Positions 1 to 20,000 of a DNA stretch of 20,000 nt are shown piece by piece (position 1 is the stretch's first letter; the number at the start of each line of letters is the position of its first letter). Origin of the DNA: an uncultured virus (IMG/VR IMGVR_UViG_3300001344_000002) (lineage: Duplodnaviria; Heunggongvirae; Uroviricota; Caudoviricetes); the IMG/VR virus record IMGVR_UViG_3300001344_000002. One strand, 5' to 3'. The translations under genes were made by a program, and so were the position numbers. The notes below the pieces were generated by a model. The model searched no databases. It had not been told where the DNA came from and saw only the letters and a program-made list of their open reading frames with translations.

Positions 1-3000
1 CTTCTTTAACTGCCTTATCAAAAGAAGGTGGGTTTTCTTGTGTAGCAGATATCTCTAGTGAATCTTTTAGCTCTTGAGAGATTAAATCTTTTGCATTAAA
101 CATAAGATTCATTCTCATCAAACCATCCTGATCTGGAACATTGTAACCTTCTATTGCTTTTGGGATCTGTATTACATCACCTGTCTTAGTAGTAATTTCT
201 TGAAAAGGTAAATTTCCTTCCTCACTATTTTCTCTGACAATTCTATTATACTCATTTTCTATAAAATCAGATACATGACCTAAGTAGTCAGGAGATATTC
301 TTAACCCTTCATCTACTGCTTTTACAACAGGTAATAATACTTGATCATTTGTATTAGAAGATTCCATTATCCTAATTAAGATTGGTGCTACTGCAGCAGA
401 ATCCATTTTAGTTTTTAAAGTGTTATTCCTAGAGTTATAATCAAACAAGTAATTGTTTATAATAGATGTAGTAAGTTGTTTAGGTGTAAAACTGCCATAC
501 TCTGTTGTACCTATAACACCATCTTGATATGAATCTAGATTAGCACTTCTATCTAATGTCTTAACTTCTTTTAAACCAGATAACCTTAAAATTTGTAGCT
601 GGTTAGCTTCTGACATGCTTAAGAATTCTTCACTATTTAATAGATAATTATTTTGTAAAAATTTATCTGATTCTAATCTATTTATCTCAGCCTCTTTATT
701 TAAATTATAAACTTTTTCTAAATGAAATGTAGGCTTCTGATGTGCATTGACTAAATCACCATTTACATTTCTAAATACTGACAAACCAACTGTCTCATCA
801 AGCAATGCATTATTAACAGCTAATTTTTTTAATCTTGAAATTGCCCCTTCATTTTCTGAATTAAATAAATCTCCATTTTCTTTAATAATATCTTGTAGCC
901 AAAACATATCGGCTGCTAGAATAGGCTTTACTTCATTATTGAATTGAAGTATAGATTCTTGATTGCTAGTTTCTGTTTGATTTGAGGCAGACAATATACT
1001 ATACTTAACATACAACGGACTTAACTTAATGCCCACACCTTCAAATAAATCTTGTGCTAATTTTTTAGATATGTTATCTAAAGGAACATCCTCATACCCT
1101 TCTGGTTGAATTAACTCATCATAAATAGCATTAACTGATCTTGTAGCAGCTTTTTTCTTTTCTTTATTTATTTTCCAATCTAAAGACTTAGTTGTATAAG
1201 CTTGACCCCATAGTTCATTTTGAGTATGTGTGTCATCTCTCTCAGCCGCTGAAAAAGATATTACTTCATTGGTATTGTCTTGTTGTAAGAATATCCAATT
1301 TACTTTATAGTTAGTAAATCCTTTTGTAATTTGATTAAACAACAAAGGATTTTTGATTTCCTGAGGCAGTTGTATATCAGATATCTCAGATACATCATGA
1401 TAATTTATTCCTATATCATTAAATATGCTTTCTACTGCAGCTTTAGTATTAGGGTTATTACCACTAAATGTATACATGCGTTGTAATATCTTTAGAGGAT
1501 CTGTCTCATTCTTAACAGATTTGATTATACCATTGTAAGTTTTAAAAGAGTTTATTGGTATAACTAATTTTTCACCACTTTCTAATTGCTCATTACCAAA
1601 TGCATCTGTATATGGCATTGTTATAGTAGAAAGGTATTGTCTTATATATGTTGGTAAAGATGCCAGCCCTCCACTCATATATGCTTCTTTACCAAACTGA
1701 GTTACATTTCTTAATCCTTCATTGTTTTCATACTCATCAATATTGTTATCAATGATTTGTTGTTGTACATCTATAAGTTGTAAAACTTCAAATACAGATT
1801 TGTATACTGGGCTATCTTCAATCTTTTCTGATGCATTAAATGTAAGTGCATCATGTATTCTTTCAAGTTGCTCAATGGCCGCTATATTAGAAGCTTCTTG
1901 AGAAGAATTATACTTACTATTAATTGGGTTTGTTACGTTATATAACCAAGCAAAATCTTCTAGTACATCTTCAAATATATCTGCATTACTTATTTCTGGA
2001 TCTATGTTTTCAGTTTTTCTACTAACATAACTAGCAGCCATACTACTAATTAAATTATTAGCAATGTTACTATCTAGATATAAATAACCTTTACTACCAT
2101 TAACTTGCAAACCTTCGTATGGTAATATAGCATTAGCTATAATTACTTGTGGGCTTGGGTCTAATGTAAAATCATTAGCAACTACTGATGCTTGTGCATA
2201 TTTGGCAGAATCAATATTCTCAAACAATGTTTGCAGTTTATTTTTATTGTATGTACTAAATAATGATTTAAACCATTCTATTATTCTTGTAAAGAATGAT
2301 TTAACTTCTGCATCTATTTTTGTTTCTTTAGGATTAGTTTTAAATATTTCAAACTGATCCGCCATGTACTCTTCATAGTATCTGTTTTCTAATTCTATAT
2401 CAGACATATTAGCATAAGTGTCTGCAGAGTTTCTGAACTTTTTTAGTTCAGTTGAAATTGATTTGCCTTCTGACCTAAGTGATTCTCTCTTTTGTTTTTT
2501 AGCAAAAGACAATAAACTTTTTTGTTCTTGTGGTGTAAGTAGCATCCTATATACACCATGAAAAGCTTCATGATATCTAAAAGGATTAGATGCTCCAGTA
2601 TATAATGTACCACTTGCTCTTAACCCCCCACTTACAGAAGATAGATCTAAAGCAAATGCTCCAACTCTAACTCCACCAGCTTTCATATTATTACCTAGTG
2701 ATTCAATATCAGCTATATTAATAAATGAAGGCAAGTTTGTTTTAGCCCACTCAGTAAATATATTGATGTCTTCTACATCTCTTTTGGATAACCTAGGAGA
2801 TAAAATTTTATTAGCTGGACCAATCAGGTCCTCTCTTTGCTTTAATAAGTCTTGATATATTTTATCTTTTCTTAATGCTCTTACCTTTTTCTTTTCACCT
2901 ACTTGTTCAGATATCTCTAATTCTCTTTCAGCTATCTGATTATTTATTGCATCTATAGGAGTTTGTGCAATTAGAGTAAGGTCAATATCATTTTTTTGAT

Positions 3001-6000
3001 CTTTAGTAACTGTAACTTTTAATATATCTTCAATCTCTTGACTCTTGGCTTGACGTATTGCCCTCTCTCTTTGTGAAAGTTGTTGACCTGTTTTAATTTT
3101 ATCAGCAATAGATTGTATTACTTTAATTTCTACTACACCATTATTAGTAAATTCTAAAAATGCTTCACTAGATATAGTATCATCTTCAGACTTGTCAAAT
3201 GCTTTTTCAACATTTTCTTGACTTATCTTATCACCAAGATTAGTAATTGCTCTAGCTCTTGCTCTAGCAGGATCCTCTCTTCTTTCTTCAGTATCTTCTA
3301 CTCTTTTTAATTTATCTGGCTCAAGTTCTGTTCTAGGTCTAGCTAAGAATATACCTTTATCTTTTGTAGCTTGGATAGCACTAGCACTTGCCTCAACATT
3401 AATAAACTGACCTGTTCTAATTTCTGGACCTAGCTTGGTAACTAAGTCTTGCATTAACATGTCTATAGAAGCATCTAATGGTATTGACTTTCTAAAGTTG
3501 TTGATACTTAAAGTCTCTACACCAACCTCATTTCCTTTTGGATCACTAATAATCTTTTCAGAAAATCTTTCCAAATGCTGTATTGTAGTTCCTTGCTTTT
3601 GTTGATCAGCTGCATTATAATATACTTTGCCTTTTTTACCTGTATACTTATTAAATAGATCTGCTCTTAATGCCCCATCAGGTGCAACATCTATAGTTAC
3701 ATTTACTCCTTTTGGCCCACTAATAAAGAACTCACCATAATCTTTAATAAATTGTAATTTAAACTCATCATTAAAACCTTTGTCTTTAATAACTTTCTTA
3801 CCATTCTTAGTAGTCATGTTATCTTTATTAGCAACACTTGCTTGCTGCAATAAATCATTAAACATTTTAATTACAGTATCTTCTTCTACTCTAATTGCTT
3901 TTGCAGTTGCTAATGTCATTAATCCGTTAGGCTGTTCAATAGGCATTATATATCTATCAGTATAACCTCCATTTGGACCAGTCTTATCACCGCTTATCAT
4001 TTTATTCCAAAGACCTGCATCTTTAAGATTATTTTCTATTCTATCTGCCAATTCAGTTTTAGCATCAGATTTTAAATTAGATATAATTGTAGGTTCATCA
4101 CCTACCATATTACCAGCAGAATCTCTTTTTATATCATAGATAATTATAGCACCATCTGTAGTAGTACTTTGAGATAATTGACTTAATGAAATTTCTGGGT
4201 TAGTTCCTTTTTTATAAGCAGGTATACCATCACTTCTTGTTATCTTTAACCCTTCTGATAAAGTACCTACAGTCTGATCCTTAGATATCATATCATTAGC
4301 AAATGAAACTAGAACTGCCTGTGTATCATAATCATTACTAACTTGATCTAATGCAGATTGCATACCTTGATTGTTGCTTGAAGGTATAATTATGTTTTTA
4401 GCAAAATCAGTTGTCATAGCTGATGGAACAACAACCTTACCTTTAGCATCAACAAAATATAAAGAATCATTAGGTAAGAAAGCAATAGTACCTTCACCCC
4501 TTTCATTTACAAGCCTGCCTTCTATTATAGGTAGCTTGTTGTCTGTTAGCATTTTATTAAAATCTACAGTCTGATCTTTACTTAACTTAAGAGCAATAGT
4601 ATATCTCTCTCTTTGTTTTTTAATATATGGGTTAGCCTTACTTTCATCATTACCATAAAATCTATTATCCTTTATAGGCTCATTTATCATTTCATTCTCT
4701 TGAATGTCCACAATTAAATTTTGGAAATCAGCAGGTGTCAATGAATTAAGAAGAAACTTATAAGCTTCTGGTGATAAAGGAGTGTATGCTTTGGTTACTC
4801 TATCAGAGTATAACTTGTATGTATTAGTTGGCAAAGTATCAAAAGATAATTTTTCTAATTCATAATTAACAAAGAAATCTAATTCACTTACAGGTTTACT
4901 ATTGTTGTATCTTGTCTTATAGTCATTAGTATAAAACTCAGAAGGAACAATACTAATCATACCTCCCTTATTAGCTGTACTATTTATTCTAAATTCTTCA
5001 CCTGTGTTTTTATCATATATAGACATGCCTTTTGACACAGCTTGTCCATCAAACATAAACGTAGAACCATCAGATATTTCTCTATCAAGTATATCCAATA
5101 ATCTTTTAGCTTTAGATAGATCTGTAAAAGTACCTGTCTCTCTTATATCTGTTGATATAATATCTAACTGAACTTGTGATAAGCTACCTCCTTGTTTATC
5201 TATAATCTTATAAAATGACCCACCATCAGTTACTACTTCTGTAATGTCAAACATTACACCTTCTGCTACAGGGGGTTTTGATTTAGATACAGTTTGACTA
5301 TTTTCAGTAGTAAATATATCCATTGTTAGGTCTAATGCATTAAGTATATCTACAACTGTTGGATCTTCTAATGCTACTTTACTATTTAAATAATCTTGAA
5401 ATCCTTTTTCTGTATTTAAATCTTTCTGAGTTGGTACTCTTCTACGTGATACTTGTTGACCATTTTCTGTTACAAAAATATCATATCCTTTACCCCATAC
5501 TCTTTTTAATGCATCATATGCGGTTTTAATTCTTTTACCATCATCAGAAACTCTCCAATCTGCAAATTCTTTTGCATCTTTAGTAAATGCAGATTCTTTA
5601 TATTTACGGTACTCTGTTTCAAGTATATTCTTTAACATAGGTGATCTTGTAGTATCTCCTATTTGTATATCATCTATGCCTGCATCCTGTAAAGTTTCTT
5701 CAACATCTATTTGTTGCTGAGTGCTTTCATTAGATTTAAGGTCTCTAACATCTTGTTCTCTTTCTGTTAAGAGTTTATAATTTAATATTTCAGCAATTAT
5801 CTTTTTCTGTATTTCTTGATCTTCATTTAACTGTATAGCACCACCAAGAGCTCTACCATCAATACTAAACTCACCTCTATTTAAACCTTCATATAAACCC
5901 TCAACGCCTATTTCACCAGATAAAAAATCTCTAATTAGTTCAGGCTTCATGTAAACATCATACTGAGCTATGGCATTTATTAACTTATTTTTTTTATCTG

Positions 6001-8968: not shown

Positions 8969-11900
8969 TTATTGTTGTGGTTTATAATTCTTAGCTTGAT
9001 TATACATATCTTTTGCTTGTTCAGTAGTAGAACCAGGGTTATTTAACATATAATCTTCAATAAACTTTGTTTCAGATAATTGTTTTGCTCTTACCTGATA
9101 AATGGCTAAATTATTTAATCTATCAAGTTCTTTAAAGTTTTGTTGTAACTTTATAAATCTACTATTTAAATCAGCTGCATAATTTATATTACCTTTTTTT
9201 AGTATAGCAGCATTCATAGGTTGTCTTGTATACTGCATACTTACATCAGTAGAATTAGGATTATATACATTAGTATATCCACTAATACTTATTGTTCCAT
9301 CTCCCAAATCTTGAAAAACTATTTCTCCTGGAGAAAACCCTGCTGTTAAATTTGTTTCATCTTTATAACTAAAAGATTGAGTATTACTCAAATTCATCAT
9401 TTGTTCAATGTAAGATGAACCTTGTATAATGTTTAAGTTGTTAGGGTTTATATCTTTATTACCACTTCTATCAAAAACCATTAAAACACCCTGATTCATT
9501 ACTTTAGTCCAATCTGAAAAAGCTTCAGAATCATCTTTATAAATCTTTTTTATCTCATTTTTAAATGCAGTACTAAAGTTATGAATCTTATAACCACCCA
9601 TAGGACTTCTAGTTTCATCATCAATCTTAGTAGCTCCTAAGTTTGGATAGTATGTCATTGTAAATTCTCCTTTAGTTGCTCTATTTTGTAAGCTTGAAAA
9701 TATTTTTTTAGCAATAATATTTTCATCTTCAGACAAATCTACCCCAGCTTCAATATTAAAATTATTAAAATCTTTTATGTCCGTTGGAGCAGGTAAAAAA
9801 CTAACCCTTGTTTCTGGATCAGCTGTTGAACTAGCTAATTGATTTAATGCAGTACCTAAAACTTTATCCATAGCAGATCCTGCTTCTGGTTTTACAGAAC
9901 CTGTAGCACTCATTGTTGGTACAAAACCAATATTGCCCCATGGTGAATTAGGATTATACCCAGCTGTTAAACTAAGATAAGAATTACCACCTATAGTTTC
10001 ATAGCTTGAATTTATTTCTTCTGCATAAGCCGTCCATAAAGCTTTAGACTTACCAGCTATTGCAGCCTCATCTACAATAACACGCTCATTATATGTACCT
10101 GTTTTTCTACTACCAGTTTTTTGGATTTTTGACCAATCTTCTCTATCAGCACCAGCATTTTGATCTCCACCAATACCTGACACATCAAAGTTTTTTATTT
10201 TTCCAGATAATGCTTGATCTTTAAAAAGTTTTTGGTATTCAGAAAAAGTCATAAAACGCTTAATGCCATCTTTTTCTGTATAAGGCTTTGGATAATTAGC
10301 TTCTATCATCTCCCTCTTCCACGTAGTCTTACCATCCATCATCTTCATCTCAGCAGCTTTTGCTTTATTATATAATTCATTGTCATACTTTTCTATCCTC
10401 TGAAGATATATATCTTCTCTTAGATTTAAACCTAATGCCTCAGGATTATTTGGATCATTACCAAATAATAGTTTATACATGACATCATATTGACTACCAG
10501 GTTTTACAAAAGCTGGAGTATGTTGAGCAATTACAGCATCCTTATTAGCAAACCATTTTGATTGTTCCTCATACATCCTTAGTATATCTGTCTCATACTT
10601 TAATGCATTTGGATCTTCAGTTACCTTTGTACCATCAATAATTGGTTTCTTCTTAAGTAAACGGTCAGTTATGGCTGAAGGAGATAAGTTAAGCATTTCA
10701 CCATCTAACGTTACGGTAAATGTTTGTTGGTCAGGATATCTTGCTTTAAGCATTTGACCAAGTAGTCTAGCTTTTTCTGTTAAAATATTTTGCCCATCAG
10801 TTGCAATCATTTCAGCATTAGTATCATAAGGGTCAGCATTATTAGCTACCTGCCCATCTACAATTACATTTAAATTTGCTCTAGGATCTGAATAATCAAT
10901 TACTGCACCAGATTGAGCTTGTTCTGTTAAGCTTTCTAAATTTTTTGCACCGTCTAATTGAGATTTTAAAATTTCCAAATTTGCATCTATGCCAGCTTGT
11001 TGGTCTTTTAGTAATTTATCAGCATTATACTTAGCAGCTATTTCTTGCAAATTAAATTTATGCAGATCTTCATTTATAACATATTTATTTTCTCTAACTA
11101 CAGTCTCTGCATTTTCTCTACTATAGTTGTATGCAGCACTCTGTAAATCTTGACTTATATTATAATTACTATTTAAACTATATGCTTTGTTTATCAATGC
11201 TTGATCATCCTTATCAGGTGTATTTGCAAATTCATTTACCTTTAAAAGATTGCTTAGATTAACTCTTAACTGCTCTGCTTCTGATAATGACTGCCCAACT
11301 AAATTTTGTTCTGCTGGTGTTAAACCATTTAATTTTCCAAAATTACCCCAGTTAGTTGTTTGTTGTACTATTCTTTGAATCTCATTATCTAGACTATTAT
11401 ATCTTTCACTGTTTGCTAATGCAAGTCTTTTTACTTCTGCATCAGACCACATTGTTAAACCCTCTGTTATTGTTTTTATTGATCCATCCTGAACACCTTG
11501 TGTAGCAAAATCCATTGATGCTACATAAGCTTTTGCTTTATAAAACTCTTGTACTCTAGGATCATCAGTTAAATCAGTCATTACTCTTCTATATGCATCA
11601 CCTTCAATAAGCTTACCGTTAGTATCTGTAATAATCCATCTATTTACAACCCTATCATCTGGTGTACCCATCACACCATCTGCACCAGCATCCATTGTGA
11701 AATGATCTTTCTTTTGTGTAAATCCTTTTCCTTCTAAACCTAAACCTCTCAAATATTCTTGAGCATATTGTGTTAAATCTGCATCTTCTACATACTTAGG
11801 TAAAGGCATATTTATTAGTTGATTTCTATCAGCTTCTTGAAACTCTTGCATTCTATATTGCATGTTCTTTATTCCAACTGGATTATAAAGTTCCCTTACC

Positions 11901-12292
11901 CTTGGGTCAGGAGAATCTGCAAATTGATTAGCTCTTTGCAATTCTTTTTTATACGTTGAAGTATATACAATATCTTTTACTACAGCTTCATCTTCAAAAA
12001 ATGGTGCAAACACAGACTTTGCAGCATCAACATTTGTTTGTAATGATAAATCTAATCCAGAAATTCTAGATAATTCAGGAGCTAAATTTTCTATAAATTG
12101 TTGTTGGAATTCTTTATTGTCTGAGTGTGACAAATCAGAATAGACTCTACTATATAGGTCATTAGTAGCTTGCCACCCTGCATTATATTTATTTTCTCTT
12201 GCATCTAATGCTGCACTAAGAAACTTATAATCCGGTGTAAACGGCTTGATGTCCGGGTAGTAATTTTTTTCTCCTTTTATATAATTTGCCAT
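8969..12292 (-). CDS. 1107-aa putative virion internal (cargo/ejection) protein, crAss-like
   Basis: Long ORF in the track, in the same operon-like run. The N-terminus (YYPDIKPFTPDYKFL...ENKYNAG...SGLDLS...NV...VFAPFFEDEAVVKD) resembles, from memory, the protein that precedes the giant RNAP-type genes in crAss-like phages. Mostly predicted helical/coiled-coil; no catalytic motif recognised. Confidence 0.8.
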   Translation of the reverse strand: MANYIKGEKNYYPDIKPFTPDYKFLSAALDARENKYNAGWQATNDLYSRVYSDLSHSDNKEFQQQFIENLAPELSRISGLDLSLQTNVDAAKSVFAPFFEDEAVVKDIVYTSTYKKELQRANQFADSPDPRVRELYNPVGIKNMQYRMQEFQEADRNQLINMPLPKYVEDADLTQYAQEYLRGLGLEGKGFTQKKDHFTMDAGADGVMGTPDDRVVNRWIITDTNGKLIEGDAYRRVMTDLTDDPRVQEFYKAKAYVASMDFATQGVQDGSIKTITEGLTMWSDAEVKRLALANSERYNSLDNEIQRIVQQTTNWGNFGKLNGLTPAEQNLVGQSLSEAEQLRVNLSNLLKVNEFANTPDKDDQALINKAYSLNSNYNISQDLQSAAYNYSRENAETVVRENKYVINEDLHKFNLQEIAAKYNADKLLKDQQAGIDANLEILKSQLDGAKNLESLTEQAQSGAVIDYSDPRANLNVIVDGQVANNADPYDTNAEMIATDGQNILTEKARLLGQMLKARYPDQQTFTVTLDGEMLNLSPSAITDRLLKKKPIIDGTKVTEDPNALKYETDILRMYEEQSKWFANKDAVIAQHTPAFVKPGSQYDVMYKLLFGNDPNNPEALGLNLREDIYLQRIEKYDNELYNKAKAAEMKMMDGKTTWKREMIEANYPKPYTEKDGIKRFMTFSEYQKLFKDQALSGKIKNFDVSGIGGDQNAGADREDWSKIQKTGSRKTGTYNERVIVDEAAIAGKSKALWTAYAEEINSSYETIGGNSYLSLTAGYNPNSPWGNIGFVPTMSATGSVKPEAGSAMDKVLGTALNQLASSTADPETRVSFLPAPTDIKDFNNFNIEAGVDLSEDENIIAKKIFSSLQNRATKGEFTMTYYPNLGATKIDDETRSPMGGYKIHNFSTAFKNEIKKIYKDDSEAFSDWTKVMNQGVLMVFDRSGNKDINPNNLNIIQGSSYIEQMMNLSNTQSFSYKDETNLTAGFSPGEIVFQDLGDGTISISGYTNVYNPNSTDVSMQYTRQPMNAAILKKGNINYAADLNSRFIKLQQNFKELDRLNNLAIYQVRAKQLSETKFIEDYMLNNPGSTTEQAKDMYNQAKNYKPQQ

Positions 12293-12351: not shown

Positions 12352-15345
12352 TTATGCACCCATCTTTCCTGTATAGAATGGATAAGCATACTTTTTAATT
12401 TCATTACCCCTTTTAGCATTGTATCTAACAGAAGGAGCATACCCTAAATCTTGTGGATCTGTTACAACATCATTTTGAGCTCTGTTATTATAATCATCTG
12501 CTACCTTATTTTTACTTTTGTTATCAGCATATGAAGGAAGAATGTACTCTAAAGCCTTATCTATACTATCACTATCAGCATCTTTAAATTGTTCCATCAG
12601 TAAATTTCTTTCTTTAATATACTGATTACGTCTTTGCTCCTGTTCACTAACATCTACATTAGGATCAACCTCAAGATTTTTGCTGTCTTTCATATTAATA
12701 ATACCTCCATCTTGTGGGCCAATTTTCATAACATCTTTTAACTGATTAAGGTTGAATGTGTTAGCTCTATTAGTTATTGCTTGATTATATAGCTCATTTG
12801 TTTTTTGCTTATTCCAATTCTCAAAATCAGTGTATCTACCTAATGCAGTAACAGTACCATCATACTCATCTTTATATGCCTTTGCGTTTTCTATACCAGT
12901 TCTTAGATTTAATTGTGCTTGTGGTAATGCAACACTATTCATAATTTTAATGTTGTTAGTATTAACTGATCCTACATCTTTAGCTAATTGATTAACTGCT
13001 TTACCAAACAAATTAGAACCAGCTACTTTACCTTTACCAAAAGCTCTTAAGTTCTTAGCCATAGTATTAAGAGCAGCATTAGTCATATTAGCTCTACCTG
13101 TCCAATCATCTAATACATAATCTATTTCTGTATTTGGTAGTCTAGGTACGTTAGGTAAGAACAATGGGTTCTCTAATGAATTCTGAGTTGCTAGATTATT
13201 AACATCTTGCCACCACCAATCTGGCTTGTCATAAAATTGTGGATCCTCACCTTCTGGTCTTTCTTTAGTTGGATCATCTATTTCAGCCATTAAACTTTCA
13301 GGATCTTCAGTTCTAATATAACTTCTAGCTTTATTAAAAGTTAACATACCAAACTTACCATCTACATTACCTGCATCACCACCTGGAAATAATTGTCTAG
13401 GTGTACCACTCTCTCCAAAGTTATCATAATGAAATTCATTTTCAACTTGTTGCATTGCATTTTGCACTGCTTCCCATTGCTTTTGATATGCTATTGCTTG
13501 AGCATCTATTGGTGTTGAAGCGTCTGATGACCACTTACCTTTAGGCATGTCATAATCAAACTCAATTCCAGATGCAACAACTTTATCAATTGCATCACCC
13601 CATCTTAATGTAAAATCTTTTTCTGCTTTGTCACTAGTTAAATCTCCACCATAAGAGTTTGCACCAGCTTTACTTGACTGTGTACCAACAGTACCACTCC
13701 TAGAATAAATACCTTCTCTTACTCTAACATTATCTCCAAATGCACCATCTTGATATACACCAAGCAATTCTTTTTCTAAATCAGTATATACATCTCTTTT
13801 ATCTCCAGTACCTGTTACCTCAATATTTTCAAATTCAAAATCACCAAAGTCCTCAAATTTATTTTTAGTTAGTGGTTTAGTTACAGTAAATGTTGTTTTG
13901 CCTAAACCTTGATCATATACTTTAGTTAATTGCCAACCATTATTCAATGCTTTTTCAAAAGCTTCTCTATCAGGATGACCAACAGGCAACGGATTACATT
14001 TATAACCTGTACATCTATTAGTTTCAGATTCAACAGTCTCATCTAATACAGTCTCAGTTCCATCAACACTTGCATCTTCAACCATCTCATCTGTAACCTT
14101 AGCATCATCATTAGAGACAACAGTCTCTTCACCTGGAGTTCTTGAAAAACTTTCATCTCTATCAGCACGGGGGTCCATTGGACTCCACCCTTCTCGTGGT
14201 TTTTCTTGTATAGCTGTATAATAAAAATCAACTTCTTCAGGAGATAGTTTCAGATTTTCTATTATATTACGGCCATTTTCTTCTACTCTTAGGTTGCCGT
14301 TAATATCTCTATGCATACCAGCTCTTATAATAAAATCAAGATATGTATTTCTATCTACTGTTTCTCCATTTATTTCATAGACACTTGATGTTCCTGGACC
14401 AAATCCAGTAGTCTCTCCTGCTTCTTGATATTTTAATAACTCACCGCCGTCTTCTAAAGTAGCTTCTAATGAATTTTCTTGACTAGCTAATGCAGACATG
14501 TCTTGTGCATCTTGAGAAGCTTGTACCTGACCAGTAGGCTCATTTGATTGTCCTGCATTGGGATTTTCTATTTGTTGCATCATTGCCTGCAACCTTAATA
14601 TCTGATCTTGTTTTTCAGGAGGTAAAGATGCTATAAAATCTAACTCTGCTTGTTGTTTGGATTGTTCTGTTACTTGTGCTGTAAATTCTATTGGGTCTAT
14701 ACCTTGCTCTTGTAGATATGGGTATGACGCTAAAGGAACACCGTCTTCAAAATCTTTTTTTAATTCTTGACCAAATGCCAACTTAGAAAGATTATACATG
14801 TTCTTACTTAACATCAACTCTGCACTCTTAGTAGATATGTCATCTGCATATTGACTATTAATTTCTCCATAGAATTGATTTAGCGGATACTTTTTAGATA
14901 TTTTAGCAGGTGTAATTTTTTTTCTACTTTCTATACCAAACTCTGCCATCTCATTTTTATCAAACTTCATTGAGTTAGTGTCAGAAAAAACAAAAGATTG
15001 TTCTGGTAAAAACATTGGTACTCCACCACTAGAATGTCTAGGTCCTTTTATATCATACAATCCAAATTGATTATTTCCATTTAAATCAGTTAATACAGTT
15101 TCTCCACCTTCTGCTTCTAAGTTAGCATCTTCTCTAGGTACACTTGATAAACTGTATCTAACAGATTGATCATCAGTGTTATTAAAGTTAGTACTTCCAT
15201 AAAACTCTTGAGGAGTTGTAACCAAACCATAATCAGCTTGATCACCAGTGGTCATACCACCATCTCTTTTAATGGCTTTCTTTTTAACCTTGCCATCAAC
15301 TAATCTAAATCCTTCCGGTAACTTATTTATTTTTACTTTTGCCAT
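12352..15345 (-). CDS. 997-aa putative virion cargo/structural protein, crAss-like
   Basis: Long ORF starting 2 nt after the upstream TAA. N-terminal domain ANLEAEGGETV...IKGPRHSSGGVP...SFVFSD...TPAKISKKY...LAFGQE, which I recognise as a recurring motif set in crAss-like virion proteins. Then Q-rich and acidic linkers and an N/Q/A-rich helical C-terminal third. Confidence 0.8.
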   Translation of the reverse strand: MAKVKINKLPEGFRLVDGKVKKKAIKRDGGMTTGDQADYGLVTTPQEFYGSTNFNNTDDQSVRYSLSSVPREDANLEAEGGETVLTDLNGNNQFGLYDIKGPRHSSGGVPMFLPEQSFVFSDTNSMKFDKNEMAEFGIESRKKITPAKISKKYPLNQFYGEINSQYADDISTKSAELMLSKNMYNLSKLAFGQELKKDFEDGVPLASYPYLQEQGIDPIEFTAQVTEQSKQQAELDFIASLPPEKQDQILRLQAMMQQIENPNAGQSNEPTGQVQASQDAQDMSALASQENSLEATLEDGGELLKYQEAGETTGFGPGTSSVYEINGETVDRNTYLDFIIRAGMHRDINGNLRVEENGRNIIENLKLSPEEVDFYYTAIQEKPREGWSPMDPRADRDESFSRTPGEETVVSNDDAKVTDEMVEDASVDGTETVLDETVESETNRCTGYKCNPLPVGHPDREAFEKALNNGWQLTKVYDQGLGKTTFTVTKPLTKNKFEDFGDFEFENIEVTGTGDKRDVYTDLEKELLGVYQDGAFGDNVRVREGIYSRSGTVGTQSSKAGANSYGGDLTSDKAEKDFTLRWGDAIDKVVASGIEFDYDMPKGKWSSDASTPIDAQAIAYQKQWEAVQNAMQQVENEFHYDNFGESGTPRQLFPGGDAGNVDGKFGMLTFNKARSYIRTEDPESLMAEIDDPTKERPEGEDPQFYDKPDWWWQDVNNLATQNSLENPLFLPNVPRLPNTEIDYVLDDWTGRANMTNAALNTMAKNLRAFGKGKVAGSNLFGKAVNQLAKDVGSVNTNNIKIMNSVALPQAQLNLRTGIENAKAYKDEYDGTVTALGRYTDFENWNKQKTNELYNQAITNRANTFNLNQLKDVMKIGPQDGGIINMKDSKNLEVDPNVDVSEQEQRRNQYIKERNLLMEQFKDADSDSIDKALEYILPSYADNKSKNKVADDYNNRAQNDVVTDPQDLGYAPSVRYNAKRGNEIKKYAYPFYTGKMGA

Positions 15346-15347
15346 AA

Positions 15348-18014
15348 TTATATAATTTCTATATCAGCACCAGCTGCAATTAATTGTGCAATCATATCTT
15401 GAGATAATTCTACTATCTCTCCCCCTGTTTTTGCCATACCATAACTATTTGGTGAACCTGCAAAGTTCATATAGTAACCAGGTGTTCTTTCTGCCTCACC
15501 TTGTAATTGTCCTGAGTTGGCATCATAAAAACCTTCAGAAAAAGGATCAGAAGTTGTTACACCATATTTATAATCAGCACCAGATCTTTCTTCCATTTGA
15601 TCTAATGCATCATTATATGCTCTTTTATCAAATACTCTGTTAACAAACCCTGCTGCATCTACAAGAGATTTAGAACCACTTGTAAAAGCTCTAAAGTTTG
15701 GGTTATCATTAATTCTATTTAAAGTACCTTCAAGTTTATTTGTAACATTAAACTCTGGGCTAGTTACTACATTTTCAAACAACATATCTGCTGATGGATT
15801 ACCAACCGTACCAAGAGCAGCTTCTCCCGTACCATCTCCTCCATCTACATCAATAGTGTCAGGAATGCCATCATTATCCATATCTATAACTTCATCTTCA
15901 TTCATTAAACTATCATCCTCTGTTATAAATGGGTATGTTTGATAAGGACCTTTCTCTTCAAAAGGACCCATTGGAAACTTTTGTTCTATGCCGGCTTGTG
16001 CTTTACCTTCTTGTCTTGCTATAGCTCTTTTAATAACCTTGTCTCTATTTTCAAGATAAGAATTCTCACCACCCTTTTCATTTTTTGGTACAGCTAAGTA
16101 AGAACCATAACCTGTTGCATCAAGAAAAGGAAACGTGGCACCTAATTCACCATGAAAATTAGGATCATGTTCATATATATAAGGTAAAAGACCTGATGCA
16201 TTAACATTTTTAGCAAGGTTATACATTCTTTTGCCATAACGCATATCTCCTATATAGTCAGAAGGATGATAATTTGATATAATTGTATCTGTGTCAAGGT
16301 TTGCTCCATTTTGGATTAATGAATATAAAATATTTTTAGTATCTCTTTTATTTGTTCCCCAAGTTTTAGAATAGTCTTTAACATCTTTTTTACTTGCTTT
16401 ATCTCCACCCAATGACATATTGCTAAGTATGTTATGTTGTGCTTCTGGTGGCAATGCTTGAAATCCTGGGTTATTAACACCCCCACCTTTTTTCATTTTA
16501 CCTGTTGTTTTCTTCCACAAGTTTTGTAATAAGTTAACAGCATTTTCAGACATCTTATTAATATCATGTCCAGCGTCTTGTGCCCATTCTGAAAATGTTC
16601 TTTTATCTTCTTCAATTGGTACACCTGAAACATCTGAAATAACTTCAGCTTGTTCGTCAAGTTGTCTTTGCTTGTCCATATCCCATTCCTTAGCTTGCTG
16701 TACTGCCCAGTCAACATATGCTTGCTGGTTTTCTGGAGATGACATTTTTGAAGTATCTACATCAACATTATAATATAAAGGTTTTAAAGCCTTATGCATT
16801 TCCATTTTAGACATGCCGGAACCTGCATCTGGATCTGGATTACCTTTAGTAAGTTGAATCTTTTCACCTTTCTTAAAAGGATTATTAATACTTATACCTT
16901 CTCCTCTTTTATTTATATCAAGAAAAGCACCTTTACGGTTACCATAGTCATCTACCTCATTGGAAAATAATTCATTGTTTATTGTAGAAGCTGTATTTAT
17001 AAAGTCAGCTAAAATATTTGTAGATGGTGGTGGCATAAGTGGTGCAACAGAATAATTTTGATTAGACATGTATTCATTCTTAGGCCTTTTCAAATTATTT
17101 GCTAATGTGGTTTTATCCATATTAGATTCATCAGGAATAAAGACACCATTAATGTACTGTCCTGTCTCTGTTCCATTTTGTGCTTTAGGAGCATCATGGC
17201 CATACCCTGCATCTTTAAGTCTAAGATGAGTAGCCATATCATTAGCTTTTATTTTTCTATCTCCTTTATACATGAAGTGTGGTTTAAATTCACCACCTTC
17301 TTTTCTAAATCTTGGATCTAAAGTGTACTTTCTATTAGGAGGATTATAAGAACCTTCTCTTTGTCTTACTCCTTCTGTATAGTTAGATGATTCCCCACCC
17401 TCTTGTTTTTTCCACTTAGCTGCATTACGTGCAAAATTAGCCATCTTAACTACAGATGGAGGATACTTACCTTTATTAGCTAAAACCTTTCTAGCAGCTT
17501 CCTGTACACCCATACCACGTTTCTTTGCCCACGCAGTAAACTTGCCTTCATTTTCTGGTTTAATTTCTATACCAGATTTAGCTATTGTCCTTACCTGCTC
17601 TGAAATGTCCACTTCTTGTTCTTGAGATTGTGCATTTGCTGCAGCCTCTCTTTCTCTTTTAGCTATATCTTTATTTCTAGCTAAGAGTTGTGGATCTCTA
17701 TCAACTTCTTGAGGTGAAGATGGTTCAGGCGGAGCATTTACTGTTTCAAATATTGTTACAATATCTTCTTGCTCCATACCACCTACCATAAGTGCTTGAC
17801 CAATAAGTTCTTGCTCAAGTTCTTGTGACATTAAATCTTTAATAATCATAACAAGATCTTTACCTTCATCAACTCCTTGTTTAATCAATTGAGTAATTTG
17901 CATTACTTTAGGATCAACCTGAGGTTGTTGAGGTGTATTTATCATACCAGGACCATCTTCAATCATTGATCCTCCCACTTGTTTTAAACTTATTTTGTTT
18001 GCTTTCACACTCAT
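15348..18014 (-). CDS. 888-aa modular putative virion protein with repeated xxxGG(E) motifs and short basic micro-domains
   Basis: Long ORF in the track. About ten GG-type motifs (KQVGG, AKSGIE, KQEGGE, RKEGGE, AQNGTE, MKKGG, MSLGG, NEKGGE, AQAGIE, AKTGGE) flank short self-contained segments. Also contains an acidic DMDNDGIPDTIDVDGGDG motif. Confidence 0.8.
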   Translation of the reverse strand: MSVKANKISLKQVGGSMIEDGPGMINTPQQPQVDPKVMQITQLIKQGVDEGKDLVMIIKDLMSQELEQELIGQALMVGGMEQEDIVTIFETVNAPPEPSSPQEVDRDPQLLARNKDIAKREREAAANAQSQEQEVDISEQVRTIAKSGIEIKPENEGKFTAWAKKRGMGVQEAARKVLANKGKYPPSVVKMANFARNAAKWKKQEGGESSNYTEGVRQREGSYNPPNRKYTLDPRFRKEGGEFKPHFMYKGDRKIKANDMATHLRLKDAGYGHDAPKAQNGTETGQYINGVFIPDESNMDKTTLANNLKRPKNEYMSNQNYSVAPLMPPPSTNILADFINTASTINNELFSNEVDDYGNRKGAFLDINKRGEGISINNPFKKGEKIQLTKGNPDPDAGSGMSKMEMHKALKPLYYNVDVDTSKMSSPENQQAYVDWAVQQAKEWDMDKQRQLDEQAEVISDVSGVPIEEDKRTFSEWAQDAGHDINKMSENAVNLLQNLWKKTTGKMKKGGGVNNPGFQALPPEAQHNILSNMSLGGDKASKKDVKDYSKTWGTNKRDTKNILYSLIQNGANLDTDTIISNYHPSDYIGDMRYGKRMYNLAKNVNASGLLPYIYEHDPNFHGELGATFPFLDATGYGSYLAVPKNEKGGENSYLENRDKVIKRAIARQEGKAQAGIEQKFPMGPFEEKGPYQTYPFITEDDSLMNEDEVIDMDNDGIPDTIDVDGGDGTGEAALGTVGNPSADMLFENVVTSPEFNVTNKLEGTLNRINDNPNFRAFTSGSKSLVDAAGFVNRVFDKRAYNDALDQMEERSGADYKYGVTTSDPFSEGFYDANSGQLQGEAERTPGYYMNFAGSPNSYGMAKTGGEIVELSQDMIAQLIAAGADIEII

Positions 18015-18068
18015 AATATTATAATATTAATATACAAATAATTACTCAGAATCACTAATTTATTAGGT

Positions 18069-20000
18069 TTAAGAATTGCCTAGCAGGTTAGTCATTATGT
18101 AATTCTGCGGTGACAATCCTCTTTGTTTTGCATCTCTATAGTGTATTCTATTTAATTTATCATAAATTTTTTCTGCTTCTATTTTATCATTACCTGTATA
18201 ACCACCATTCATAAACTTTTTGTAAGTAAGGTATTTATTAATTGAACCACCAAATTCTTTTTTGCCTATAAATTCATTATAACCTTTTAAAAATCTATCA
18301 TAATGATTCTTATCTGTTCTATTATATGTATCCATGTAGTAATTATACAATGCTTTAGGATCTTTACTAGATGGCAATGGATTTTTATTTGTTCCATATT
18401 GATATCTTGATGCAGCAACATTTGCTTTTATATCATTACGTAGATGTTCATCCATATGCTCTAGATCATAACCCATACTGTCAAACCAATCTATATATTT
18501 TTTTTGACTTGCAGTATAATCATTTGCACCTTTTCTCATTTCAAACATATGCTTATAAGCTATATCATCTATTGACATAGGACCCCTTGTATAATCTCTA
18601 CCATAAGCATCTGCATTAGCCCCATAAGAATTTTCCATAAAAGCAGTCATAATTAACAAATCTCTTAAGTTTTCATCTCCTCCTTGATCATTTACTATAA
18701 AATTAATTGCATCAGTAAGTTCAGTTCTTCTTGTTTGAGATTCTTCATCTATATCTCTATATGGGTTATATGTCTTTTTAGCCAACTGTTTGTTTATAGC
18801 ATCTAGATTTTTCTCTACTTCTCCTTTGTCTTGGTATTCTTCTAAAGACTCACCGCCTTTCTGTTTGTATATATTAGGATCAGTCATATCAAACATACCA
18901 TTATTACCTATTGATGATTTCATTTGATTATTAAAAGGAGTTACTCCTTCTTGTAAAGGGCTGTCTATAGCTCTTAAAAAATCTCCACCTTGATCAATAA
19001 AACTTTCTTTTACTGGATTTCTAGGAAAATTCATTTTTATAAAACTAATGATGTCGTCATCTGTTTTAAGCCATTGATTTTGTTTAATCAACCTTTTTCC
19101 TAGATCACTAGCTTTCCAATCAGCTAATGAAGGTAAGTTATCCATAATTTTACCAAAGTTTCTATAATCTAAAATATCATCAGTAGTGAGTGGATTTTTA
19201 GCATTAATATAAAGCTCATATAAATTTGCTGTAGGTTTATCAGTCCCACTCTTACCAGCTATCTTTTTGGTTCTATTTTTATTTGGATTAGCATAAGATT
19301 TGAGTATAGCTTCTTTATCAGTGCTTGTATAAACACCCTTTCCATATTCACCACTATAAAATTTACTTTCATCAAAGATATCAAACTTACTACCACTGCC
19401 ATGATAGTTTATTAAAGGAGACCCACTATCATCTAAAAGGGCATTTGGAAAAGCTTTTTTATAATTACTACTTCTTATCTGTACCCATTGCTCAGGTGTG
19501 CCTTTAAACATAGAGCCATCTGGATTCTTCATCCATGTACCATCTGCTTTTCCAATTTTTTCAATAGCATTATACTCTTCCATGAGAGATTTATTATTTG
19601 GTATTTCTTTATTCCATTTACTCCAATTTGGTCTTACTGATGGAATTCTACCCTTAACATTTGCATTAGCATTGCTCATTGACCTACTTGTATTTGCTGC
19701 AATCTTTTGTAAAGGTGTCTTAAGATTTTTTGCAGCTACTAAAGATGCTGGTATAAAGGGTAAAGCACCCAAGGTGTTAAAGGTTGCATTTAAATACTCT
19801 TCTTCTTTAAAATCTTGAGCAGCATTTTCTCCATACTGATACCATGCAAAAGGATTTAAAATATCAACAACCATGTCAAAGTTATTTCTATTAGGATTAT
19901 TAACATCTAATCCATCAGGAATATCTTCACCTCTTACACTATAACCAAAAGAAGTAAAAGGATTTGCTAAATAGTCTGCTGCTTTTTCATACCAAGCTGG
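18069..20000 (-). CDS. Polyvalent phage protein (at least 643 aa, 5'-truncated): pre-toxin-like segment, ADP-ribosyltransferase (ART-PolyVal-like) and lysozyme-like domain
   Basis: The track calls 18069..19874, but the frame stays open to 20000 (PAWYEKAADYLANPFTSFGYSVRGEDIPDGLDVNNPNRNNFD-MVVD...), so the true start is probably outside the window. ART motifs: PLINYHGS, YGKGVYTST, KSYA, LYINAKNP, QEGVTPFNNQMKSSIGNNGMFD. Confidence 0.85.
   Translation of the reverse strand, partial: PAWYEKAADYLANPFTSFGYSVRGEDIPDGLDVNNPNRNNFDMVVDILNPFAWYQYGENAAQDFKEEEYLNATFNTLGALPFIPASLVAAKNLKTPLQKIAANTSRSMSNANANVKGRIPSVRPNWSKWNKEIPNNKSLMEEYNAIEKIGKADGTWMKNPDGSMFKGTPEQWVQIRSSNYKKAFPNALLDDSGSPLINYHGSGSKFDIFDESKFYSGEYGKGVYTSTDKEAILKSYANPNKNRTKKIAGKSGTDKPTANLYELYINAKNPLTTDDILDYRNFGKIMDNLPSLADWKASDLGKRLIKQNQWLKTDDDIISFIKMNFPRNPVKESFIDQGGDFLRAIDSPLQEGVTPFNNQMKSSIGNNGMFDMTDPNIYKQKGGESLEEYQDKGEVEKNLDAINKQLAKKTYNPYRDIDEESQTRRTELTDAINFIVNDQGGDENLRDLLIMTAFMENSYGANADAYGRDYTRGPMSIDDIAYKHMFEMRKGANDYTASQKKYIDWFDSMGYDLEHMDEHLRNDIKANVAASRYQYGTNKNPLPSSKDPKALYNYYMDTYNRTDKNHYDRFLKGYNEFIGKKEFGGSINKYLTYKKFMNGGYTGNDKIEAEKIYDKLNRIHYRDAKQRGLSPQNYIMTNLLGNS
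18270..18722 (-). other. Probable lysozyme/transglycosylase-like domain
   Basis: A helix ends in a Glu (LLIMTAFMENSYG, Glu at 18633-18635). It is followed by a GxMQ-like strand (RGPMSID), then NVAASRYQY, PLP and YYMDTYN. This is the motif order of lysozyme-superfamily folds, but the matches are divergent. Confidence 0.5.
18867..19538 (-). other. ART-PolyVal-like ADP-ribosyltransferase domain
   Basis: WMKNPDGS...PEQWVQIRSSNYKKAF leader; YHG (His at 19401-19403); GxGVY; YA; YINAKNP; candidate catalytic Glu at 18948-18950; C-terminal QMKSSIGNNGMFDMTDPNI, matching the QIKS..GNNG.FD...pdI signature of this family. Confidence 0.8.

Follow-up and report, generated by a model that had tools for sequence, protein, structure and literature searches.

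The 20,000-nucleotide stretch analysed here (the window) lies at the end of a 73-kb contig from an uncultured virus (IMG/VR IMGVR_UViG_3300001344_000002), and carries five large genes, all on the minus strand. Three consecutive genes encode proteins in which a short glycine-rich motif recurs, and the question that this locus raises is what the motif does. A preliminary description had read the proteins either as polyproteins cut at the motif by double-glycine logic, or as chains in which the motif is a docking tag. We observed that the motif is real and is restricted to the three cargo genes. It is likely, with a moderate degree of confidence, to be the site of a maturation protease, with the cut predicted two residues before the first Gly (K|QEGG, K|QKGG, K|RDGG).

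The motif in three cargo genes

The genes concerned are the following (lengths in amino acids, aa).

18069..20000, minus strand: cargo polyprotein A, of whose 1217 aa (length from L003) the last 643 lie here, with conserved N- and C-terminal domains around variable modules
15348..18014, minus strand: cargo polyprotein B, 888 aa, with ten motif copies
12352..15345, minus strand: 997-aa protein, likely counterpart of the crAss001 C1 protein (gp45) by gene position and weak domain matches, with sequence comparison not significant
8969..12292, minus strand: 1107-aa protein without the motif, an internal control
2558..2572, minus strand: HExxH zincin-type motif in the 4553-aa polymerase-associated polyprotein

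Protein A is truncated at the contig end; its full gene was seen in the identical locus L003, directly after a muzzle-like gene (muzzle identity from position and size). The gene order is muzzle-like, 1217 aa (A), 888 aa (B), 997, 1107, 4553 and 1921 aa. The 1921-aa protein matched crAss001 gp49 at E 2e-17. In G003, a relative with a complete genome, we found Crass_capsid, Ring_1, Ring_2 and a portal of the gp20-like type. This is the order of the cargo region described for crAss001 (PMC10172136), namely muzzle, cargo genes and virion RNA polymerase genes, accompanied by crAss capsid and ring proteins; the window genes are the cargo region of a Crassvirales phage. Homology and gene order indicate that the three motif-bearing proteins are likely virion cargo, as had been supposed. 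Two motif-bearing proteins at the same gene position in phi14:2, gp081 and gp080, are annotated as structural by tandem mass spectrometry.

All 14 motif positions checked from the preliminary description, plain and degenerate, were found where it had placed them, on the minus strand. Its pattern, x-[KQESMR]-x-G-G, has 17 matches in these proteins taken together, compared with 5.2 in shuffled sequences (0 of 1000 shuffles reached 17). The 1107-aa protein, said to lack the motif, has 0 matches, and the 4553-aa protein has 5 against 5.7 in shuffles. We took relatives from the best 80 of 302 related loci, dropped the five nearest and de-duplicated the rest to 37–49 proteins per class. A motif matrix was trained on the relatives of proteins A and B (classes A and B) only, leaving the 997-like class untrained, with shuffles as control. 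With this matrix the three window proteins had 16 matches, compared with 1.59 for their shuffles (0 of 300); one of these is an overlapping duplicate, and three were not counted as seams because they lie inside the conserved C1-type domain of the 997-aa protein. The untrained 997-like class yielded 236 matches against 33 in shuffles. Enrichment is 7–10-fold in the three cargo classes, and the matrix is at background in the muzzle (9 versus 10.6), 1107-like (33 versus 23.8) and polymerase-associated, 4553-like (46 versus 52) classes. In G003, 12 strong matches fall in the three cargo genes and four in two tiny basic proteins, and six other genes, including the muzzle, have one match apiece.

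The consensus is [AKYMFL]-[QKEAR]-x-G-[G/I/K/N/T]-E. The Gly core and the E of the earlier form, xxxGG(E), do recur, but its second glycine is not strictly G: it is kept in 505 of 782 sites and replaced, often by bulky residues, in 277. The tandem form described in two proteins is present (KQKGGE...YQDKGE and LEDGGE...YQEAGE), but YQDKGE and YQEAGE lack the first Gly and are second tandem units. The commonest short tandem spacing is 9 residues.

Seams between swappable modules

The motif copies and modules of the three proteins are arranged as follows, from protein A to the end of the 997-aa protein.

18891..19433, minus strand: ART-PolyVal ADP-ribosyltransferase module (Pfam PF18760, E 1e-12)
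18819..18866, minus strand: tandem seam KQKGGE...YQDKGE, which follows the ART module and has its predicted cut at K|QKGG (score 11.3)
18264..18683, minus strand: phrog_3108 module (E 6.9e-9)
18243..18260, minus strand: seam KEFGGS, opening the conserved C-terminal domain of A (score 11.6)
18201..18215, minus strand: FMNGG copy inside the conserved C-terminal domain of A (score −1.6)
17967..17984, minus strand: seam KQVGGS, after the 11-residue basic N-terminus of B (score 12.8)
17406..17582, minus strand: AKSGIE seam and basic IxIK micro-module (net +11; phrog_20603; homologous to gp45 ∼365–423)
17391..17408, minus strand: seam KQEGGE, predicted cut K203|Q204 (score 18.8)
17289..17306, minus strand: seam RKEGGE
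17166..17183, minus strand: degenerate seam AQNGTE (score 15.2)
16482..16496, minus strand: seam MKKGG (score 12.6)
16404..16418, minus strand: seam MSLGG, where alignments end (score 2.1)
16065..16082, minus strand: seam NEKGGE (score 10.2)
15984..16001, minus strand: degenerate seam AQAGIE (score 11.7)
15417..15434, minus strand: seam AKTGGE, before the conserved C-terminal peptide of B (score 15.9)
15256..15270, minus strand: seam KRDGG, opening the C1-type domain (xxxGG here in 118 of 120 homologues)
14701..15267, minus strand: C1-type compact domain with invariant His and Glu, a candidate protease or motif reader
14413..14457, minus strand: tandem seam LEDGGE...YQEAGE
12400..12417, minus strand: seam AKRGNE, before a conserved 20-residue C-terminal peptide (score 11.5)

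At the low-scoring FMNGG copy, relatives mostly retain Y-x-x-G. Further protein A copies, at G91, G557 and G566, were seen in L003 outside the window. The motif had been said to stand right after the ART domain, and KQKGG begins 9 residues past the Pfam ART-PolyVal match (190–370). KEFGG, placed after a 'lysozyme-like' domain, does lie 2 residues past the phrog_3108 match (440–579), but the lysozyme-like assignment was not confirmed, phrog_3108 being without known function.

Class A relatives, with a conserved domain at either end, measure 406–2276 aa; complete 1107-like proteins have 1016–1198 aa. We defined a breakpoint as the internal end of a pairwise alignment between relatives, and counted those ≤8 residues from a motif. 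In class A, the motif accounted for 52% of the starts (n = 807) and 50% of the ends (n = 782), with a background of 7%. The corresponding figures were 34% of 569 starts and 59% of 729 ends in class B (background 12%), and 6% of 127 starts and 27% of 1392 ends in the 997 class (background 7%). A shared motif may drag the end of an alignment by a few residues, which does not explain the seven-fold excess. The relative L005 has no cassette between KQEGG and RKEGG in protein B. We concluded that the motif, as observed directly at module borders, is a seam between swappable cargo modules; the module boundaries and exchangeable cassettes proposed earlier are supported.

Since module swaps end at the motif, it could be a recombination scar in the DNA, with the peptide a by-product of translation. 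However, Gly codons and GG dicodons at the seams are nearly as diverse as background, so that the constraint acts on the peptide rather than on DNA; the motif is conserved as protein and not as DNA. Gut crassviruses and phi14:2 also share the peptide, not the DNA. A DNA scar is barely credible, and codon diversity has already largely refuted it.

Between protein A and the 997-like gene, protein B-like sequence is split into two open reading frames (ORFs) in L017 (443 + 434 aa), L034 (188 + 705 aa) and L043 (222 + 971 aa), as expected if the modules need no fusion. An HExxH module of protein A lies at residues 281–285, outside the window (gene L003:3624-7277), and phi14:2 gp081 has two.

Polyvalent proteins (Iyer et al. 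2017, PMC5512222) are likewise multi-module injected proteins with ART-PolyVal and zincin modules, for which proteolytic domain release has been proposed. Their hallmark, several unrelated effector domains in one chain, was found in protein A only (ART-PolyVal plus the HExxH at residue 281 of 1217). They differ in that no junction motif, and no 'glycine' or 'GG motif', is mentioned in the available text of PMC5512222; here, a HExxH of their own is seen in no class B protein (0 of 49) and in only 14 of the 49 from class A.

Register of the predicted cut and its possible catalyst

The T5 tape measure protein pb2 is matured into pb2* and pb2C by a cut after R1127, according to proteomics and intact mass (Linares et al. 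2023, PMC10038345), and its residues 1127–1131 read R|AEGG. The available text of that paper names neither the motif nor a protease. We selected 120 loci (117 non-redundant) solely by a downstream VGExGPELFxP pattern, from one of 64 parts of the collection. In 106 of the 115 loci with enough upstream sequence, AxGG lies 11 or 13 residues before VGExGPELFxP and is preceded by R, F or K. The profile of these loci matches T5 pb2 at E 2e-5; because of this match and their nearness to a stop codon, we take them as tape-measure C-termini. Like the cargo proteins, pb2 is an ejected virion protein, and its x|AxGG site is the one found ahead of the GExGPE domain in these C-termini. The differences are that pb2 has one site in place of 3–10, that it belongs to a siphophage tail and not to the cargo of a podovirus-like head and tail, and that the marine sites of the window's relatives mostly have Q or K at the predicted P1' and are unscored by a matrix of tape-measure sites, the domain that follows being not detectably homologous.

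Another counterpart is crAss001 gp45 (Bayfield et al. 2023, PMC10172136; PF25725), which follows the muzzle gene, has AxGG-type copies at G209, 263, 332, 373, 427, 562 and 828, and carries an IxIK micro-module between motifs. Several copies are also present in each of 28 non-redundant gut C1 proteins, where the marine matrix gave 50 matches against 10.9 and the tape-measure matrix 33 against 3.8; the latter gave none in 13 other crAss001 virion proteins. Protein B and gp45 have in common a basic micro-module with the motif at both ends (42% identity, pairwise E 1e-9), which makes K203-Q-E-G-G the positional homologue of gp45 N424-A-F-G-G. Two pieces of gp45 are resolved, 214–245 and 425–552 (PMC10172136; PDB 7QOG chain M). 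The second begins at A425 of N424|A-F-G-G with its Gly-Gly intact, which suggests a cut before Ala. Both resolved pieces, and four peptide regions quoted in PMC10172136, lie inside predicted fragments. The predicted register is taken from T5 pb2 and from this domain start. Unlike gp45, which is one gene, the window has three motif-bearing genes with ART and other enzymatic modules. The available text of PMC10172136 treats gp45 as intact and mentions neither motif nor cleavage.

Adenain, ASFV pS273R and C39 peptidases process GG-punctuated virion or precursor proteins, cutting after the glycines and needing small residues there. The double-glycine logic of the preliminary description would have a ubiquitin/SUMO-type, adenain-type or C39-type cysteine protease cut after G-G, and the commonest marine form, Q-x-G-G (182 of 494 sites), is reminiscent of SUMO-type ends. 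However, G-G at P2-P1 is not invariant, given the replacements of the second Gly counted above; the resolved gp45 domain retains its GG uncut; T5 pb2 is cut before AEGG; and no cognate cysteine protease was matched in the 49 virion-region proteins of G003, to which the scan was confined. A cut after G-G is thus very improbable, and of the earlier polyprotein proposal it is processing at the motif that we retain. The motif, with a variable second Gly and its best register before the glycines, is not a member of the cut-after-GG systems. It also fails a strict Ala test for a T5-type site: the marine sites have the GG register but mostly lack the Ala at P1', which the gut C1 proteins do have.

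According to the favoured reading, each cargo polyprotein would be loaded whole into the particle, probably by its conserved terminal domains; its seams would be cut two residues before the first Gly, and separate small modules would be released for ejection. Such processing would resemble tape-measure maturation, and also the release of domains that has been proposed for polyvalent proteins. Two protease candidates can be named: the C1-type domain, which is bound to the portal, and the HExxH zincin within the polymerase-associated polyprotein. Among the conserved virion genes, the HExxH of the 4553-aa protein is the sole protease motif that could be recognised, and a zincin has been discussed for phi14:2 gp65 (10.1101/2020.03.07.982082).

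The 997-aa protein has an Atlas feature match of 0.94 to the PF25725 cluster. Its C1-type domain aligned with 7qog_M at Z 5.6 (root-mean-square deviation 4.4, 89 aligned, rank 18 among helical matches) and has weak BFVD matches; Pfam, hidden Markov model (HMM) and hhalign comparisons with PF25725 or gut C1 were not significant. PDB sequence searches, run with the 888-aa and the 997-aa protein, found nothing, and neither did Foldseek against PDB or a further Atlas search that started from the gut C1 domain. In tblastn against cultured phages, the 997-aa protein found nothing and its domain alone one weak match. The Atlas, 7qog_M and BFVD matches, weak but concordant, make it likely that the 997-aa protein holds the C1 compact domain, which it would then share with gp45. 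A fold of the domain from the alignment reached a predicted local distance difference test score of 74 (single-sequence 39), with low confidence for residues 1–42, which include the motif, so that the model is silent on motif binding. His and Glu are invariant in the marine and gut C1-type domains (in gp45, His450, Glu472 and Glu475), the sequences within each set being closely related.

The marine and gut C1-type domains (window 14701-15267 and L006:32260-32643) both show a His loop and an E-x-G-x-E/E-x-G-E strand, in opposite order, a difference that also sets the 997-aa protein apart from gp45; this suggests a permutation or loop relocation.

Several observations weigh against cutting. There is no cut on record for any crassvirus protein, and in the model of Bayfield et al. 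(PMC10172136) gp45 is a single chain that is threaded through. Among the 49 virion-region proteins of G003 we found no Pfam maturation-protease family, only a tail-fibre S74 chaperone and an amidase, and phmmer of the crAss001 gp66 aspartyl protease against the genome of the present virus gave no match. The start of the gp45 model at A425 may also mark where order begins. The tape-measure matrix has 0 sites in the three window proteins and is near shuffles on the marine classes (7 versus 5.2, 5 versus 3.0 and 0 versus 3.5), so that the link to T5 runs only via gut C1, in two steps. Ala occupies the predicted P1' in 108 of 113 tape-measure sites. Of the 494 marine sites only 87 have it there, Gln (182) and Lys (139) being commoner. 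HMM and hhalign comparisons of the tape-measure C-domain with C1 domains gave no significant match, most seams have no GExGPE-type domain behind them, and a search for T5 pb2C homologues returned only near-identical T5 relatives.

We re-matched the available matrix-assisted laser desorption/ionization (MALDI) peak lists of a crAss001 virion gel (PMC6235969), with shuffled sequences as decoys. Eleven of 13 bands were clear (muzzle, polymerase subunits, portal, tail fibres, capsid or gp36), one was weakly gp29 and one had too few peaks. gp45 was at decoy level in all 13 bands, while the portal, of similar size (93 kDa) and like gp45 present in 12 copies, gave 12 matches against 3.2. This decoy-level signal of gp45 is no more than suggestive of a cut protein. 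The argument is a weak one, with 13 bands in which stronger proteins can suppress others; the motif-free gp46 also shows just one peak, and of the predicted half-tryptic gp45 peptides only 1 of 5 in range was matched, in a gp36-dominated band.

The motif might instead be an uncut docking or loading tag, each copy binding a pocket on portal, scaffold, capsid or C1 domain and so tethering the cargo chains during assembly. In keeping with this, gp45 A425–G428 is ordered in the portal-bound structure, class B copies lie near the protein termini, at a median distance of 14 aa (N-terminus) and 25 aa (C-terminus), and the two tiny basic proteins consist of little but motif copies. However, the 1107-aa and polymerase-associated proteins lack the motif although their crAss001 neighbours gp46–gp50 are cargo, which rules out a general loading signal; nor would a tag have to stand at each internal border, and the T5 look-alike is a cut site. 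We regard docking as somewhat unlikely.

A structural seam, that is, an uncut Gly turn that caps modules or gives way when the chain unfolds and threads through the tail, is in our view more doubtful still. Cargo must unfold to pass the tail (PMC10172136), several motif positions are tolerant, and no maturation-protease family was found among the 49 virion-region proteins of G003, all of which would fit. A hinge, however, needs neither conserved −3, −2 and +2 residues, nor a 9-residue tandem spacing, nor matching flanks in gut C1 and tape-measure proteins, and other ejected proteins do without the motif.

An extension of the favoured reading, which we consider rather unlikely, is that siphophage tape measures and crassvirus cargo share an old maturation code, x|[AQK]-x-G-G, read by the small His/Glu domain after the motif. 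The tape measure would cut itself, the twelve portal-ringing C1 domains would cut all cargo down to an ejectable size, and any gene placed between two motifs would become an injected effector.

If cutting at the motif is true, the model of crassvirus ejection changes: pre-cut pieces take the place of a single long C1 chain that is threaded, and the swapping of injected effectors such as ADP-ribosyltransferases is explained. The favoured reading is testable in cultured phages. We found no description in the literature of the motif or of cleavage of these proteins (most subscription papers were not covered). The available texts of PMC10713586, PMC11972413 and the bioRxiv version of the T5 paper treat tape-measure cleavage without naming the motif.

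Lambda gpH, small motif proteins and neighbouring genes

The motif also bears on the old open question of the cleavage site and catalyst of lambda gpH, both stated in 2025 to be not known, with a ∼14-kDa piece reported (PMC12617516). gpH (L083:1543-4104) contains F733-A-T-G-G and Y778-A-T-G-G. The motif predicts a cut at F733|A734, leaving 120 residues, near the 14-kDa piece.

Gln, the commonest predicted new N-terminus at the marine sites, could cyclise to pyroglutamate, which would be invisible to N-terminal sequencing. Pyroglutamate is a common protein end in Bacteroidota.

The two tiny basic proteins have 82 and 78 aa, with 18 and 17 K/R and four xxxGG each, 12–23 residues apart. If cut, they would yield short basic peptides, candidate DNA-condensing core peptides. 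Genes for such motif-array proteins lie outside the window as follows.

G000:C1:34877-35125 and C1:36869-37105, minus strand: tiny basic motif-array proteins
L319:3220-3441 and 4949-5206, plus strand: tiny basic motif-array proteins

A 60-aa ORF at G000:C1:26429-26611 (minus strand) contains FATGGPT, the best tape-measure-type match of that genome (score 16.5); this could represent a third protein of the small motif-bearing kind, or else a shadow ORF.

The muzzle-like protein (L003:2-3622 and L005:2-3364) has a variable insert with, by eye, a von Willebrand A-like look and Cys-rich repeats on both sides. In the relative G003, the portal gene is preceded by a gene for a 729-aa protein, and immediately ahead of the latter stands a GroES (Cpn10) gene (L316:7177-7485, plus strand).

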